A program made the translations under genes and the position numbers. DNA of 64,000 bases from Bacteroidia bacterium (lineage in GTDB: Bacteria > Bacteroidota > Bacteroidia > AKYH767-A > OLB10): positions 17,211 to 81,210 of the forward strand of contig JBBRAW010000003.1 in NCBI GenBank assembly GCA_038206385.1. The letters run 5' to 3'. How positions within the stretch are numbered: the stretch's first letter is position 1; the number at the start of each line of letters is the position of its first letter. Below, in pieces: positions 32,060-52,186 of this stretch. Under the pieces are notes generated by a model that was given only the letters and a program-made list of their open reading frames with translations, made no database searches and was not told the DNA's origin.

Positions 32060-32720
32060 TTATCGAGGATTCCGTATTACGATTAAATTCAGAAATTCAG
32101 GCCTCTCCTTCGCCCTTCGAAGGAGGGATTTTAAATTTACGATATCTAATGGGATTTTATTTCCAAGTAAAAACTTAAACTTAACCACGTGCGGCTGTGG
32201 TCAAGCTGAAATAAATTAAAAATTAGAAATTAAAAATTATCCCGAAGGGACCACTATGTGGCGAATTACGACAAAGAGCTACTTTGTTGAAATTTATGTA
32301 ACAATTTTATCGTGATTGTATTTTGAAGTCCTGATAACTATTGGTTACGCTTGTGTGGTGTTCTTTGGTTACTTTCTTTTGCCCACCAAAATGAATTTAA
32401 AAACACCCCGAAGGGGCCACTATGTGGCGAATTATCCCGAAGGGACCACTATGTGGCGAATTACGTTGGACAAGAGATATTTGAGTATAACCAAGTAAGT
32501 GCGTTGTGGTCAAGCATAAGTGCGAACTATCAATTGATGTACCGATGACGTAAATAGAAAGTACTGCCATTTTGCTTTCACTTAATAGCCTTTTTAGTTT
32601 GCATATTGTTCAAGTGATAGTTGGTTACGCTTGTGTGCTTTTCTTTTGTCACTTTCTTTTGCCCACCAAAAGAAAGTGACAAAACAAAATAGGATAACAA
32701 ATATTTATTAAAGCACAAAT
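32060..32720. repeat. repeat mosaic: GC palindrome site, partial B unit, 3 more A units, full B unit, two C units (one with perfect 18-bp-stem hairpin 32644-32684)
   Basis: A units at 32240, 32406, 32436 (the last two tandem). B at 32186 (partial) and 32490-32535. C units 32334-32395 and 32623-32690. Confidence 0.8.
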
Positions 32721-32830: not shown

Positions 32831-32904
32831 TGGAGAATACCGGGATCGAACCGGTCACCTCTTGCATGCCATGCAAACGCTCTAGCCAGATGAGCTAATT
32901 CCCC
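32831..32904 (-). tRNA. tRNA-Ala (anticodon GGC)
   Basis: Cloverleaf reconstructed by hand. 7-bp acceptor stem with G3:U70, T-arm GGTTCGATCC, anticodon loop AT-GGC-AT, discriminator A. Confidence 0.8.
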
Positions 32905-47894: not shown

Positions 47895-50800
47895 ATGAAA
47901 AAAATATTTCTCCTATTAATTGTTTTATTATCGTTCAATTTATTTGTAGTTGAGGCGCAAATTTCTGCCAACTGGCACGTAACTGGACCAATAGCATTTC
48001 CAACTAATATTTCAGGACAGATAAATGGAATTGGAAGAGTAACACAAATTAAATTTCATCCAACAGATTCCAATAAAATTTACGCTACAAGTGCTTCAGG
48101 TGGATTGTGGGGAAGCATCAATGCTGGATTAAATTGGAATCATCTTGGTACAGACAATATGCCTTGGACACAATGTGCCTCTGTATGCATCGACCATACC
48201 AATGACTCCATCATTTATTTAGGAACAGGTGATCCGAATTATTATGGACAAGGATTAGGTATTTGGAAAAGTGTTGATGGTGGAATAACATTTAATCAAT
48301 CCAACGCGAACATTGGTAACAGAATGGCATTAGAACTTTTAATGGATCCATCCAACGATTCAATTTTAATTGCTGCTACCGATGATGGGATATGGAAATC
48401 GTATGACGCTGGTAATACGTGGCAAAATAAATTTACCGGAAGTTCTTTTACAGATATGAAATACAAAGGAACATCAACTGGAGATACAATTTATGCAGTT
48501 ACTTATTCCGAATATTACCAATCGGTTGATCGTGGTGAAACATGGACACAAATTACAAATGGTGTAGTTATTCCAAATGGAAATGGTGAAGGAATGCGTC
48601 TTGGAATTGGTATTGATAATCCTGATGTGATTTATTTAGGAATGGTATCTGATAGAGGCACAATTTTAAAATCAACAGATGGAGGAATGTCTTTTACAAC
48701 GGTATATCATAATCTTCAAAATAGTCTTGTTGGTTATGATACAGCCTCAACTGGGCAAGGAAATTATAATTTCGGAATTACAGTTGATCCATTAAATTCT
48801 GATCGCATATTACTTGTTTCACATTGCGTTTGGAGATCAGATGACGGAGGAATTAATTGGATTAAACTTACGGATTGGCCTTATGATTGTCATACAGATA
48901 TGCATCAGATAATTTACAATCCTTATAACCACAACAATTTATTTAATGCAAATGATGGAGGGATATTTTTGAGTCATGATGATGGTGATACGTGGGATCC
49001 ATATTGTGATGGCATTGAAGCAACTGAATGTTATCATGCAGCACAAAGCCAACTGAAAACAAATATTGTGAGTATTGGAACGCAAGATAACGGCGAACTA
49101 TTTTATGATAATAACTGGAAAACAAATCGTGGTGGAGATTGGAGTGAAAAAATGATTTATGATTTTCTAACTAATAATCGTGTTTATTATTTCAATGGCA
49201 ATAGAAGAATTATAACAGGTGGTGATCAGTCATGGGCAAATCCTGAAAGCAATCTAACAACAATGCTCTTTACTCCATTGCAACCTAATGCTGCAATCGT
49301 TGGTGGGAATGATATTTATCGAACATTTAATTTAAGTACCAATCCACCTACATGGAATAAAATTGCAACGATAAATCAAACTGTAATGGCTATGGAATTA
49401 TCTTCAACGGATAGTAATGTTTTATATGTTGTTGTTGCAGGGAATCAAATCAAACATAGTATCAATGCATTTTCACAATCACCAACTTTTACAACTACTT
49501 TTACACCAGGAAATACGAATGTAGCAACTAGTATTGCATTGGTAAAAAACAATCCAAATATTGTTTACCTAACTTGTGGAAGTAAAGTTTATCGTTCAGT
49601 AAATCAAGGAACATCATGGACAAATATTACATATAATTTGCCAAGCATAAATATTCTTAAAATATTTCATGATAATTATTCAACAAATGAATCAGTATAT
49701 GTAGGAACAGCACGTGGCGTTTATTATAAAAATGATACCATGAATACTTGGGCCAATTACTCACAAAATTTACCAACTATTTCCGACATTCAAGATTTTA
49801 TGATGATCAATGATGGAAGTCCGAATACACGATTGCGTGTTGCTTATTATGGACGTGGTGTTTGGGAGAGCGATATGTTACAACCGAATCAAATTCCAGC
49901 ATCCGACTTCGATGGTTTTCCAAGAGTAATCTGTCCAGGAAATAGCGTTAATTTTTCTGATTCATCAACACTAAATACTGCAACAAGGATTTGGAGTTTT
50001 CCTGGAGGGACGCCATCCACGGCTACAACAAAAAACGTGACTGTAGTGTATAATACTGTAGGCATTTATCCAGTTACATTAGTGTGTACTAATTTAAATG
50101 GTAGTGATACAGAAACAAAAAATAATTATATCATTGTACAACCTGCAAATGCATTACCAATAACGGAAGGGTTCGAAGGAAATTTTCTACCCTCCTATTT
50201 TAGTTTTAAAGATGATGGTGATGATGGTGTAAATTGGATGCAATCAACAACTGTTGGTGGTTATAGTTTGACTTCCAAATGTGCTTTATTTGATAATTAT
50301 AATGTTGATGCAGCAGGGAAATATGATGAACTCAGAACGGCCCAATATGATATCAGCAATGCAAATAATTTACAATTAAATTTTGATGTTGCTTATGCAG
50401 CTTATGGTAGTCCTTATAATGATTCTTTAGCAGTACTTTATTCTACAGATTGTGATAGTACTTACACATTAATTTATTTAAAAGATCCTACTGCTCTAGC
50501 TACTGCTCCTAATAATACTACGTCTACATTTGTTCCTGCTGCTAATGAATGGAGAACAGAAACTATTAATCTCACCAACTTAATTGGACAAAATAAAATC
50601 ACTTTTGCATTTCAAAATAGAGGAAACTTCGGACAAGCATTGTATATCGACAACATCAATATTAGTTCGTCAGTTGGATTAAGTGAAAGCGAAATAAAAA
50701 ATCAAAATATTTCTGTTTATCCAAATCCAACGAGTGGAATATTTTCCTTATCGATAAATAATAGCACAAAAAATTTATCTTCTTATCAAGTAATAAATAA

Positions 50801-50957
50801 TCTTGGTCAGGTTGTTTTGAAGAATAAAATTGATACTAAACAAAATCCATTAACCCAAAGCATCGACCTCTCAAAATATGGTAAAGGGGTATATCTTTTA
50901 TCAGTGATGGATAATAATGGTAATGTTTTTAAGAATGTTAAGGTTGTGGTGGATTGA
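47895..50957 (+). CDS. secreted BNR/Asp-box repeat beta-propeller protein with PKD domain and T9SS C-terminal sorting domain (GH74/sialidase-like fold)
   Basis: Seven S-x-D-x-G-x-(T/S)-(W/F) Asp-boxes (DGGITF, DAGNTW, DRGETW, DGGMSF, DGGINW, DDGDTW, NQGTSW). PKD-like segment. C-terminus 'GVYLLSVMDNNGNVFKNVKVVVD'. Confidence 0.8.
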   Translation: MKKIFLLLIVLLSFNLFVVEAQISANWHVTGPIAFPTNISGQINGIGRVTQIKFHPTDSNKIYATSASGGLWGSINAGLNWNHLGTDNMPWTQCASVCIDHTNDSIIYLGTGDPNYYGQGLGIWKSVDGGITFNQSNANIGNRMALELLMDPSNDSILIAATDDGIWKSYDAGNTWQNKFTGSSFTDMKYKGTSTGDTIYAVTYSEYYQSVDRGETWTQITNGVVIPNGNGEGMRLGIGIDNPDVIYLGMVSDRGTILKSTDGGMSFTTVYHNLQNSLVGYDTASTGQGNYNFGITVDPLNSDRILLVSHCVWRSDDGGINWIKLTDWPYDCHTDMHQIIYNPYNHNNLFNANDGGIFLSHDDGDTWDPYCDGIEATECYHAAQSQLKTNIVSIGTQDNGELFYDNNWKTNRGGDWSEKMIYDFLTNNRVYYFNGNRRIITGGDQSWANPESNLTTMLFTPLQPNAAIVGGNDIYRTFNLSTNPPTWNKIATINQTVMAMELSSTDSNVLYVVVAGNQIKHSINAFSQSPTFTTTFTPGNTNVATSIALVKNNPNIVYLTCGSKVYRSVNQGTSWTNITYNLPSINILKIFHDNYSTNESVYVGTARGVYYKNDTMNTWANYSQNLPTISDIQDFMMINDGSPNTRLRVAYYGRGVWESDMLQPNQIPASDFDGFPRVICPGNSVNFSDSSTLNTATRIWSFPGGTPSTATTKNVTVVYNTVGIYPVTLVCTNLNGSDTETKNNYIIVQPANALPITEGFEGNFLPSYFSFKDDGDDGVNWMQSTTVGGYSLTSKCALFDNYNVDAAGKYDELRTAQYDISNANNLQLNFDVAYAAYGSPYNDSLAVLYSTDCDSTYTLIYLKDPTALATAPNNTTSTFVPAANEWRTETINLTNLIGQNKITFAFQNRGNFGQALYIDNINISSSVGLSESEIKNQNISVYPNPTSGIFSLSINNSTKNLSSYQVINNLGQVVLKNKIDTKQNPLTQSIDLSKYGKGVYLLSVMDNNGNVFKNVKVVVD

Positions 50958-51003
50958 AATAGAAGTTTGATAATTACAAACCAGATATTACCCTTTCTTA
51001 AGG

Positions 51004-51217
51004 ACTTCGATTTTCTAGGCTTTGCCGCTATAACGAGGGGCTTTACCACCTCGTTAAAACATTTCACCCTTTCAGGGCTTTGACTTGCAGCTCAGAAGGG
51101 ATGTCATTCATTAAGGATTGCCTTGAAGCCCCGAAGGGGTGTCATTCTTATCCGATGGGCTGTTCCCATCGGATAAGAATAAAAACAACATAAGCCCTGA
51201 AAGGGTGAAATAAAACT
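51004..51217 (+). repeat. structured ~220-bp REP-like element, copy 1 (upstream of the transposase gene)
   Basis: Perfect 20-bp terminal IRs (51061-51080 / 51192-51211). Internal palindromes 'aacgaggg..cctcgtt', 'gccccgaaggggtg', 'ttcttatccgatggg-ctgtt-cccatcggataagaa'. Confidence 0.85.
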
Positions 51218-51670
51218 ATGGGACAATCACTCGTAAAAAATTATATACATATAGTATTTAGCACCAAGCACCGACAGCCATTAATATATCCTCCAGTAGA
51301 GGAAGAATTGCATAGTTACTTAGGAGGCATTTGCAATAAGTTGGAATGCCATGTACTAAAAGTTGGAGGCTTTACCGACCATATTCATATCTTATGCATG
51401 CTATCGAAAAAGATAGCACTAATGAAACTAATGGAAGAACTTAAATCACATTCATCAAAATGGATAAAAACAAAAGGAGTTGATTATGCAAACTTTTATT
51501 GGCAAGATGGATATGGAGCTTTCTCTGTTAAACCGTCAGAGGTAGAAATAGTGATAAATTACCTTGCTAAACAAAAGGAACATCACAACAAAAATAAATT
51601 TCAAGATGAATACCGTGCATTTTTAAAAAAGTATAAAGTTGAATATGATGAAAAGTATGTTTGGGATTAG
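51218..51670 (+). CDS. IS200/IS605-family HuH Y1 transposase, REP-associated tyrosine transposase (RAYT)-like
   Basis: HuH motif 'HIHIL'. C-terminal catalytic Tyr context 'YWQDGYGAFSV'. N-terminus 'IHIVFSTKHRQPLI'. 150 aa. Flanked by REP-like structured repeats. Confidence 0.8.
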   Translation: MGQSLVKNYIHIVFSTKHRQPLIYPPVEEELHSYLGGICNKLECHVLKVGGFTDHIHILCMLSKKIALMKLMEELKSHSSKWIKTKGVDYANFYWQDGYGAFSVKPSEVEIVINYLAKQKEHHNKNKFQDEYRAFLKKYKVEYDEKYVWD

Positions 51671-51732
51671 AGATGCCGCACTTTAAAGCGAATCATGAGG
51701 CCCCATTTAATGCTGATTATCGCCTTTGAAAG

Positions 51733-51952
51733 GCTTAGATTTTTTAAGGTTTTATTGACTTTAACGAGGGGCGTTACCACCTCGTTAAAACATTTCACCC
51801 TTTCAGGGCTTTGACTTGCAGCTCAGAAGGGTTATCATTCATTAACGATTGACTTGAAGCCCCGAAGGGGTGTCATTCATTAACGATGGGCTGTGCCCAT
51901 CGTTAATGAATGAAAACAACATAAGCCCTGAAAGGGTGAAATAAAACTATGG
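51733..51952 (+). repeat. structured REP-like element, copy 2 (downstream of the transposase gene)
   Basis: About 90% identical to copy 1 including the 20-bp IRs. Internal palindrome replaced by a different perfect palindrome 'ttcattaacgatggg-ctgtg-cccatcgttaatgaa'. Ends with an orphan ATG (M-E-H-stop). Confidence 0.85.
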
Positions 51953-52186
51953 AACATTAATATGCAAAAATACCATCAGGAATAGAAACAGAAATGAAAT
52001 AGCTAGGATAATAAACAAAATATATACTACTGAGGATAATTAAAAATATTTGAAATACGAAATCAAAAAAATCTTTTCACCACCCTAGAAACCCCATTTT
52101 CAAAAATAAATTAAAAATAATTTTGCGCAACCGAATAATTGCATATATTTGCAACCGATCAGTTTCGTAATTAAATAAATTGAATA

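Follow-up and report, generated by a model that had tools for sequence, protein, structure and literature searches.

A Y1/HUH transposase gene between two-hairpin modules, apparently related to Acido-Lenti-1, in a Bacteroidia genome

The tnpA locus and its flanking repeats

We analyzed a 64,000-nucleotide stretch of DNA, here referred to as the window, from a Bacteroidia bacterium of the lineage Bacteroidota; Bacteroidia; AKYH767-A; OLB10 (NCBI GenBank assembly GCA_038206385.1, contig JBBRAW010000003.1, positions 17,211 to 81,210 of the forward strand). A preliminary description, made from the sequence alone, had drawn attention to one locus in it, where a tyrosine transposase gene of 150 amino acids (aa), here called tnpA (51218-51670 in window coordinates, plus strand), lies between two direct repeats composed of short hairpins. 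For comparison we used related loci from other genomes, numbered with the prefix L. Among these, L078-L157 are 80 metagenome loci that were selected by protein alone to avoid circularity.

The two direct repeats (51028-51239 and 51759-51970) are 212 nucleotides (nt) long, 89% identical, and offset by exactly 731 nt, in agreement with the ~90% identity first described. Leftward they extend by another ~38 nt at 65% identity (50990-51027 versus 51721-51758). The 20-mer ATTTCACCCTTTCAGGGCTT is found twice on each strand (plus, 51061 and 51792; minus, 51192 and 51923), four matches against 0.01 expected, and the 64-kb window holds no other match even when three mismatches are allowed. When folded as single strands, the repeat copies reach -53 and -57 kcal/mol (z = -10.7 and -11.7 versus shuffles).

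The anatomy of the locus was resolved with a covariance model, R1, built from 62 instances of a recurring module. This module is ~45 nt long and comprises a first hairpin, H1, of the form GCCC(T/C)-GAA-(A/G)GGG(C/T), a ~13-nt linker, and a second hairpin, H2, with a variable stem of 7 to 8 bp and a loop of 3 to 5 nt. R1 splits each 212-nt copy into a minus-strand module (matches at 51031-51081 and 51762-51812), a plus-strand module (51125-51174 and 51856-51905), and a plus-strand lone H1 before the ATG position (51191-51219 and 51922-51954). Two stretches of H1 plus GAAAT, one belonging to the minus module and one to the lone H1, pair to make up the 20-nt inverted repeat. Each copy had been described as an element of ~220 bp with 20-bp terminal inverted repeats; the perfect inverted repeat is present in both copies, and what it encloses is a doublet of inverted modules plus a lone H1 rather than a single element. 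The features are, from left to right:

50990-51027, no strand: outer extension of the left repeat, with a small hairpin (CCTT-TCTT-AAGG) and a T-rich run, directly after the stop of the upstream T9SS-type gene; unscored by R1
51031-51081, minus: module A-left, two-hairpin; H1 at 51066-51078, H2 stem 51031-51038/51051-51058; R1 51.0 bits, E = 2.4e-11; the H1 flank is the left arm of the 20-nt inverted repeat
51082-51124, plus: spacer, possibly a decayed plus module, in which TCATTCATTAAGGAT is similar to the part of module B made up of the linker and the 5' arm of H2; in repeat families D7, I9, and I14; no R1 match
51125-51180, plus: module B-left; H1 GCCCCGAAGGGGT at 51128-51140, H2 extended to 16 bp; R1 43.0 bits; I12
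51191-51217, plus: lone H1 GCCCTGAAAGGGT (51194-51206) followed by GAAAT; R1 27.2 bits; H1 lies 11 nt before the ATG, and the 20-mer (51192-51211) ends 6 nt before it
51218-51670, plus: tnpA, intact, ATG start; predicted 150-aa Y1/HUH transposase of subclass 1.2 (Pfam, NCBIfam, alignment to IS608, fold)
51676-51690, minus: degenerate remnant of a lone H1 after the stop, ccgcactttaaagcg versus canonical ccgccctttcagggc, seen when the 75 nt downstream are compared across loci
51721-51758, no strand: outer extension of the right repeat, with the hairpin GCCTT-TGA-AAGGC (51722-51734) and then a T-run, terminator-like for tnpA
51762-51812, minus: module A-right; H1 at 51797-51809, H2 stem 51760-51769/51780-51789; R1 48.9 bits; I25
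51856-51913, plus: module B-right; H1 at 51859-51871, H2 extended to 19 bp; R1 56.3 bits; I8; opposite strand 22.6 bits with Acido-Lenti-1, sub-threshold
51922-51975, plus: lone H1 with the 20-mer (51923-51942), then, by alignment, a decayed tnpA start ATGGAACATTAATATGCAAAAATAC from 51949; R1 27.8 bits

Upstream of these features, positions 47895-50957 encode a 1,020-aa protein whose C-terminal tail, read by eye, resembles a type IX secretion sorting domain. In combination with the AT-rich DNA, this tail would point to a Bacteroidota source, most likely one resembling Flavobacteriales.

The predicted protein, TnpA, scores 89.3 bits with Pfam Y1_Tnp (PF01797; cut-off 23) and 67.4 bits with the NCBIfam IS200/IS605 model (NF033573; cut-off 55), which bears out the initial call of a Y1/HUH transposase. 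The suggestion that it is a RAYT fared less well, as it reaches only 21.3 bits with the RAYT model NF047646 (REP_Tyr_transpos; cut-off 80) and carries the motif Y---Q, not Y---NP. In an alignment to IS608 TnpA, H55-I-H57 is the HUH motif, and Y115 and Q119 correspond to the YIENQ segment, the catalytic residues of IS608 TnpA being Y127 and Q131 (PMC3597680, PMC6006769). By this homology the catalytic tyrosine is predicted to be Y115 (in NYLAKQ), with Q119 four residues on in the same helix. The tyrosine of WQDGYGAFSV, which had been taken as the catalytic signature, is Y99; it is conserved, yet by homology to IS608 it is not the nucleophile.

Invariant in 81 homologs are H55-I-H57, W95-Q96, Y115, Q119, and H122-H123, and a 31-sequence alignment shows the tail residues F128, E131, Y132, Y143, E145, V148, and W149 to be invariant as well. 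The motifs DHIH, WQ, and YLAKQKEHH, the 150-aa length, and this tail match subclass 1.2 as defined by Quentin et al. 2018 (PMC6006769). An AF2 model of moderate confidence (pLDDT 68.9) was used in a fold search, in which IS608, ISDra2, and Sulfolobus TnpA took PDB places 1 to 29 and the Escherichia coli RAYT (4er8) came 30th. Pfam found no helix-turn-helix (HTH) domain in the 150 aa, and PADLOC gave no match of TnpA to a defense system. There are 6,959 homologous proteins at E < 1e-10, the best of them ~80 to 85% identical and from several orders of Bacteroidota. On these comparisons, TnpA is classed as an IS200-class protein, TnpA-Y1 subclass 1.2, and a RAYT is excluded.

The largest hairpin in the left repeat copy is a perfect 16-bp stem (arms 51144-51159/51165-51180), and that in the right copy is a perfect 19-bp stem (51873-51891/51895-51913). 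As first observed, the two hairpins differ in sequence while both stay perfect; the differences are at four positions per arm, with all four pairs restored. In comparison with related loci, the left hairpin has a family-typical 3' flank, GGATAAGAAT, and a 5' linker altered to match it, and the right hairpin has a typical 5' linker, TCATTCATTAA, and a 3' flank matched to that linker; a 3' flank like that of the right copy, CGTTAATGAAT, also occurs in downstream modules of L078-type loci. Templated conversion from arm to arm, or exchange of module variants, would fit the difference at least as well as stepwise compensation. We conclude that the stems are constrained because of covariation across the whole family, as described below, rather than because of this two-copy difference, from which the preliminary description had deduced selection on structure.

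The right repeat copy carries ATAAAACTATGGaAC, which is the tnpA start, as had been noted; the remnant as a whole is 54% similar to the tnpA start over 43 nt. Similar remnants, a lone H1 followed by ATGG(G/A)AC, are found at the gene-less loci L052, L021, and L036, and the lone H1 before the ATG is shared with most of the 80 protein-selected loci. The homology that the window shares with over 35 related loci has a sharp left boundary at 51125-51127 and stops at 51669-51692.

The module and its association with tnpA across loci

Covariation was judged primarily from a test anchored on the H1 sequence, which replaced a hairpin-selected set. Of 301 distinct H1-anchored segments, 147 form at least 7 of the 8 H2 pairs, where shuffles average 8.9 such segments and never exceed 16, and several pair types occur at the variable H2 positions. 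In the same segments the linker A and T, four and five nt after H1 (for example, at 51144-51145 and 51210-51211), are 98% and 96% invariant, which exceeds the conservation of most stem positions. The linker AT and the conserved H1 are candidate determinants of recognition or cleavage. The outer H1 position is G-T in 189 cases versus A-C in 7, so that it may be a recognized base rather than a pair. The non-Watson-Crick cells of H2 comprise 38 of G.T type and 44 of A.C type; this missing wobble bias mildly opposes selection at the RNA level.

An acidobacterial homolog (L057) that is 49% identical to TnpA adjoins an identical 20-mer, and because of this we attribute the conservation of H1 to constraint and not to recent transfer alone. 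DNA mini-hairpins with a G-N-A triloop and a closing C-G pair are unusually stable, a property that would be favorable in a single-stranded DNA substrate. The commonest H2 5' arm is cgATGGG, and across all loci its distance from H1 is about that between the lone H1 and the ATGGGAC of the tnpA start (in the window, 51155-51159 and 51218-51222). From its sequence, the gene start looks like a module with the second hairpin replaced by an open reading frame (ORF).

Across the 80 protein-selected loci (300 kb), R1 detected 554 modules, and nearly all of these loci are bracketed by modules. Within 250 nt upstream of the ATG, the plain H1 pattern has a plus-strand density of 6.6 per kb, and within 250 nt downstream of the stop it has a minus-strand density of 5.6 per kb; it falls to ~0 beyond 1 kb from tnpA and is 0 within the ORF. 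The canonical layout is a module, ~70 nt, a lone H1, ~11 nt, and tnpA from ATG to stop, followed after ~8 nt by an inverted lone H1 and after a further ~70 nt by an inverted module. With + and - for modules by strand and parentheses for a lone H1, the recurrent H1-to-H1 spacing is + 71 (+) 494 (-) 70 -. Between genomes, the nucleotide homology of full elements covers ~670 nt and halts at the outer modules. Two tnpA-bearing copies occur in one metagenome-assembled genome (MAG; L017 and L074).

The modules nearest tnpA are of inverted polarity in this layout and at the window locus alike. The direct-repeat appearance of the window locus is due to additional modules farther out, one minus module beyond the left end and a plus array beyond the right end. 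This qualifies the earlier remark that direct flanks are unusual for RAYT/REP pairs: the direct repeats are real, and the gene-proximal modules are inverted, as is typical of REPtrons and TIRtrons. The layout in which a minus module and one or more plus modules stand on both sides of tnpA recurs at L084, L086, L055, L074, and L017. The sequence of the right doublet points to a second, truncated unit as its most likely ancestor.

Long tandem runs of plus modules, with a period of 66 or ~91 nt, occur on both sides of tnpA at other loci (L086 172-765 and 1433-2036; L089 2710-2957; L084) and show local amplification of modules. The spacing from module B to the lone H1 in the window is 66 nt, the same as one of these periods. 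On the short metagenome contig L119, two 100% identical tnpA genes (67-516 and 1150-1599) lie 633 nt apart, with modules and the end of an unrelated ORF between them; this pair is either a very recent duplication or an assembly artifact.

A second recurrent feature of the protein-selected loci is their neighborhood. At 26 of the 80, the gene right after tnpA encodes a type I restriction R subunit (HSDR_N, ResIII, EcoEI_R_C), and at 13 the gene before it encodes HsdS (Methylase_S), the hsd genes and tnpA being all co-oriented (for example, L083 1-6450, L124, and L114; also L055 1722-5279). The order hsdS-tnpA-hsdR persists with HsdR down to 46% identity, and the identities of HsdR and TnpA correlate (r = 0.67). 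The tnpA of the window is not beside hsd genes.

Gene-less copies and comparison with known systems

A search for exact copies of the 20-mer, with one genome per species and the source genome not among these representatives, returned 77 loci, so the inverted repeat is not specific to the source genome. The hosts include many families of Bacteroidota as well as Acidobacteriota, Planctomycetota, Brocadiaceae, and Desulfobacterales (Desulfobacterota). Most genomes have one match, and one Lewinellaceae MAG has six loci. At ~60 of the 77 loci there is no tnpA or tnpA remnant within 8 kb. Of 81 sites, 72 fall outside open frames of at least 120 codons, though such frames cover 83% of the loci.

Several kinds of gene-less arrangement were found. 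Eight loci (L039, L067, L025, L052, L035, L002, L007, and L048) have the form + (+) (-) - with 28 to 126 nt between the lone H1s, which resembles miniature inverted-repeat elements (MITEs) or REPINs. Lone ends of the form + (+) occur at L009, L013, L038, L056, and L072. Back-to-back doublets, (-) - + (+), which are the unit repeated in the window, occur at L021 (twice), L016, and L011. Short remnants of the tnpA start or end remain at L052, L021, L048, and L050; those at L048 (1518-1622) and L050 (5138-5194) encode 35 N-terminal and 19 C-terminal aa, respectively. At L023 (5507-5956) and L057 (5347-5796), tnpA has in-frame stops, and there, as at L048 and L050, the decayed gene stands between intact modules. 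Judged by sequence, decayed tnpA between intact modules points to loss of the gene with the ends kept. The REP/RAYT-like arrangement that had been considered, rather than that of a textbook IS200, holds for related genomes in that copies without tnpA are clustered and intergenic; it does not hold for the protein, which is not a RAYT.

Read on its opposite strand, the module is Rfam RF01687 (Acido-Lenti-1). The gathering score of 37 bits is passed by eight matches in L007, L052, L067, L039, and L001 plus two in L086 (37.6 to 53.4 bits). At that threshold Rfam gave nothing at the window locus, where the best copy, module B-right, reaches 22.6 bits; the link comes from this sub-threshold match and from the related loci, R1 uniting the window copies with the passing modules. 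The window modules are accordingly read as probable diverged relatives of the passing Acido-Lenti-1 modules, with which they share the two-hairpin architecture and the conserved linker. Weinberg et al. 2010 described Acido-Lenti-1 as a probable noncoding RNA of Acidobacteria and Lentisphaerae with no assigned function, and a 2026 preprint states that little is still known about it. In contrast to that description, the modules here are tied to a transposase gene, occur in both orientations, and reach Bacteroidota, Planctomycetota, and Desulfobacterota.

The arrangement resembles the REPtron (RAYT/TnpA-REP with REP/REPIN, e.g., in E. coli) in that a single Y1/HUH gene stands between inverted short hairpin repeats and in that, as seen in the related loci, repeats are dispersed intergenically as singles, inverted doublets, and clusters. 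It differs in its protein, which is class 1 (Y---Q) rather than class 2 (Y---NP) and fails the NCBIfam RAYT model, and in its repeat, which has two hairpins and no 5' GT(A/G)G foot and is common to different phyla instead of being lineage specific. The bases before H1 are A-A or n-A and those after it G-n-A-A-T, and column frequencies show no GTAG foot.

TIRtrons, as described by Di Nocera et al. 2013 (PMC3733652), likewise have a tyrosine transposase gene (TIRYT) between long terminal inverted repeats (TIRs), some of which are double palindromic and which occur as single, dimeric, or grouped genome copies. The family layout + (+) gene (-) - is that of a TIRtron; the window locus keeps an intact left end and has a decayed lone H1 downstream of the stop. 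TIRYT proteins differ in that they belong to class 2 and for the most part to subclass 2.1, which has an HTH-like domain at the C terminus (Quentin et al., PMC6006769), and the module consensus does not contain GGGGWSAS, the motif common to TIRs as they are described in the text of that work on TIRtrons.

With the IS200/IS605 elements IS200, IS608, and ISDra2, the family shares the enzyme fold, the catalytic residues, a unit of ~670 to 700 nt, hairpin ends, and MITE-like derivatives formed by internal deletion that retain both ends. Quentin et al. 2018 (PMC6006769) described subclass 1.2 proteins from Bacteroidetes with DH[IV]H, WQ, Y---Q--HH, ~148 to 150 aa, and a conserved tail, all of which apply here, and reported the subclass as lacking REPs or insertion sequence (IS) ends. 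That the gene is almost always bracketed by hairpin modules in the 80 loci contradicts this part of the description, not the membership. The H1 motif was not found in the supplement tables of Quentin et al., and a literature search, incomplete in coverage and without figures, returned no paper in which subclass 1.2 and Acido-Lenti-1 are connected, or in which either of them is connected with hsd loci. Taken together, the sequence comparisons suggest an arrangement that works like a REPtron or TIRtron with an enzyme that is IS200-class rather than RAYT or TIRYT.

The GC-rich CCCGAAGGG hairpins elsewhere in the window had been thought to be of the same flavor. We considered the sites at 32241, 32407, and 32436 as further module copies and rejected them; they belong to an unrelated 36-nt repeat and score at most 9.8 bits with R1. 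The 36-nt unit, AATTATCCCGAAGGGACCACTATGTGGCGAATTACG, occurs in three copies with two small adjacent hairpins (32231-32470), beside a tRNA gene (32831-32904, minus strand). A 63-nt unit in two copies (32341-32403 and 32621-32683) is equally unrelated to the module (R1 at most 9.8 bits).

Interpretation, rival explanations, and meaning

We propose, with a probability of roughly 0.7, that the locus holds one representative of a widespread element of IS size that consists of a subclass 1.2 TnpA gene with inverted arrays of two-hairpin modules as its ends. In the window the left end (module B and the lone H1) is intact and an extra inverted module A lies outside each side, which leaves tnpA between two direct doublets of minus module, plus module, and lone H1. 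TnpA would bind the modules as single-stranded DNA hairpins, probably on the lagging-strand template, and would cleave and rejoin DNA beside them using Y115 and a metal site of H55, H57, and Q119. DNA bounded by modules could thereby be moved or amplified, giving rise to tandem arrays, gene-less pairs like MITEs or REPINs, and lone ends. The chemistry is modeled on IS608, ISDra2, and the E. coli TnpA-REP system (summarized in PMC6006769); the sequences themselves show the anatomy, the association of protein and module, the intergenic dispersal, and the covariation, and we infer binding, cleavage position, active strand, and any present mobility.

Several observations weigh against this proposal. 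Within the 64-kb window, R1 modules are confined to the tnpA locus, and the sequence of the degenerate lone H1 after the stop suggests that the window copy may be immobile. The sequences used to build R1 were preselected for hairpin formation, so covariation statistics computed from them are inflated. The gene-less clusters could be decayed full copies rather than mobilized mini-elements. The synteny hsdS-tnpA-hsdR in about one-third of the related loci suggests long vertical persistence over frequent jumping. Finally, characterized IS200/IS605 elements have left-end (LE) and right-end (RE) hairpins on the same strand and no terminal inverted repeats (PMC6006769), unlike the inverted, modular ends found here, in which modules before the gene lie on the plus strand and those after it on the minus strand.

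We regard it as very improbable that the locus is an ordinary IS200 copy whose repeats are its normal LE and RE. The NCBIfam IS200/IS605 name (67 bits against 55), the IS200-sized core unit of ~670 nt, the two copies in one MAG, and the two identical copies on L119 would all suit such a copy, but the ends are inverted arrays of a shared module that has been conserved in several phyla and that mostly occurs apart from the gene, and the Y---Q--HH signature is that of subclass 1.2, which Quentin et al. (PMC6006769) set apart from true IS200. A plausible reading, somewhat short of even odds, is that the 212-nt repeats arose when a 731-nt unit, consisting of a doublet and tnpA, was duplicated locally in tandem, with the second gene then deleted and the arrangement having no function of its own. 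It would account for the ATG and decayed tnpA 5' stretch in the right copy and for the period of exactly 731 nt, and it has parallels in the two full, identical tandem genes of L119 and in the 66-nt and ~91-nt module arrays common in related loci. However, the remnant has only its 54% similarity to the tnpA start, and modules of both orientations stand on both sides of the gene in several independent loci, which may make the arrangement a regular outcome of propagation. Such a duplication would explain the origin of the repeats and not the nature of the modules, and it is compatible with the element proposed above.

That the modules act as RNA, either as an Acido-Lenti-1 small RNA or as a structured 5' leader controlling translation of tnpA, with the transposase incidental, we regard as improbable. 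Modules of related loci pass the Acido-Lenti-1 gathering score, the module stems covary, and the lone H1 and the 20-nt long-range pairing end 6 to 11 nt before the ATG; a leader hairpin is known to limit translation in IS200 (PMC4513863). Against this stand the presence of both module orientations at every locus with inverted polarity around the gene, an Rfam strand opposite to the sense strand of the upstream modules, the missing wobble bias in H2, and the tight association with an HUH enzyme that acts on DNA hairpins. Promoters are not enriched (6 sites versus 6.7 expected) in a sigma-70 scan, whose scope does not extend to Bacteroidota promoters. It also seems unlikely, though less so, that tnpA is a domesticated, immobile REPtron-like gene, vertically inherited, whose product maintains the modules or serves a neighboring type I restriction system. 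The conserved hsdS-tnpA-hsdR order with its correlated HsdR and TnpA identities, the ~80% identity of TnpA across Bacteroidota families, and the low copy number reported for subclass 1.2 (Quentin et al., PMC6006769) are what domestication would predict, but 117 neighboring ORFs fall into 69 clusters, the window copy is away from hsd genes, and the sharp ~670-nt homology boundaries in different contexts, together with the pseudogenized copies at L023 and L057, resemble a mobile element.

Under the proposed element, the window locus is an ordinary, probably aging member of a very widespread family. The anatomy of that family, an IS200-class gene with inverted ends of Acido-Lenti-1 type, appears to be undescribed in the literature searched. 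A broader idea, which we put forward tentatively and with the odds against it, is that subclass 1.2 and Acido-Lenti-1 form one cross-phylum system that bridges IS200 and REPtrons and is preferentially kept between hsdS and hsdR for a role there, for example, in hsdR expression or cassette movement. The IS200-class enzyme of such a system would work on inverted two-hairpin ends, and the orphan Rfam "RNA" would then be transposon-end or REP-like DNA.

If our reading is correct, what Rfam lists as Acido-Lenti-1 would be hairpin DNA cognate to a transposase and not a free-standing RNA, which gives an orphan Rfam family a testable identity, and the published picture of subclass 1.2 as an enzyme without associated repeats would be corrected. 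The short, extremely conserved module would make a good biochemical substrate for hairpin recognition by HUH enzymes, and the position between hsdS and hsdR offers a lead on the organization of type I restriction loci. With a class 1 enzyme and inverted, REP-like ends, the family would be an intermediate between IS200 and the domesticated REP/RAYT systems and would thus bear on the origins of REPs.

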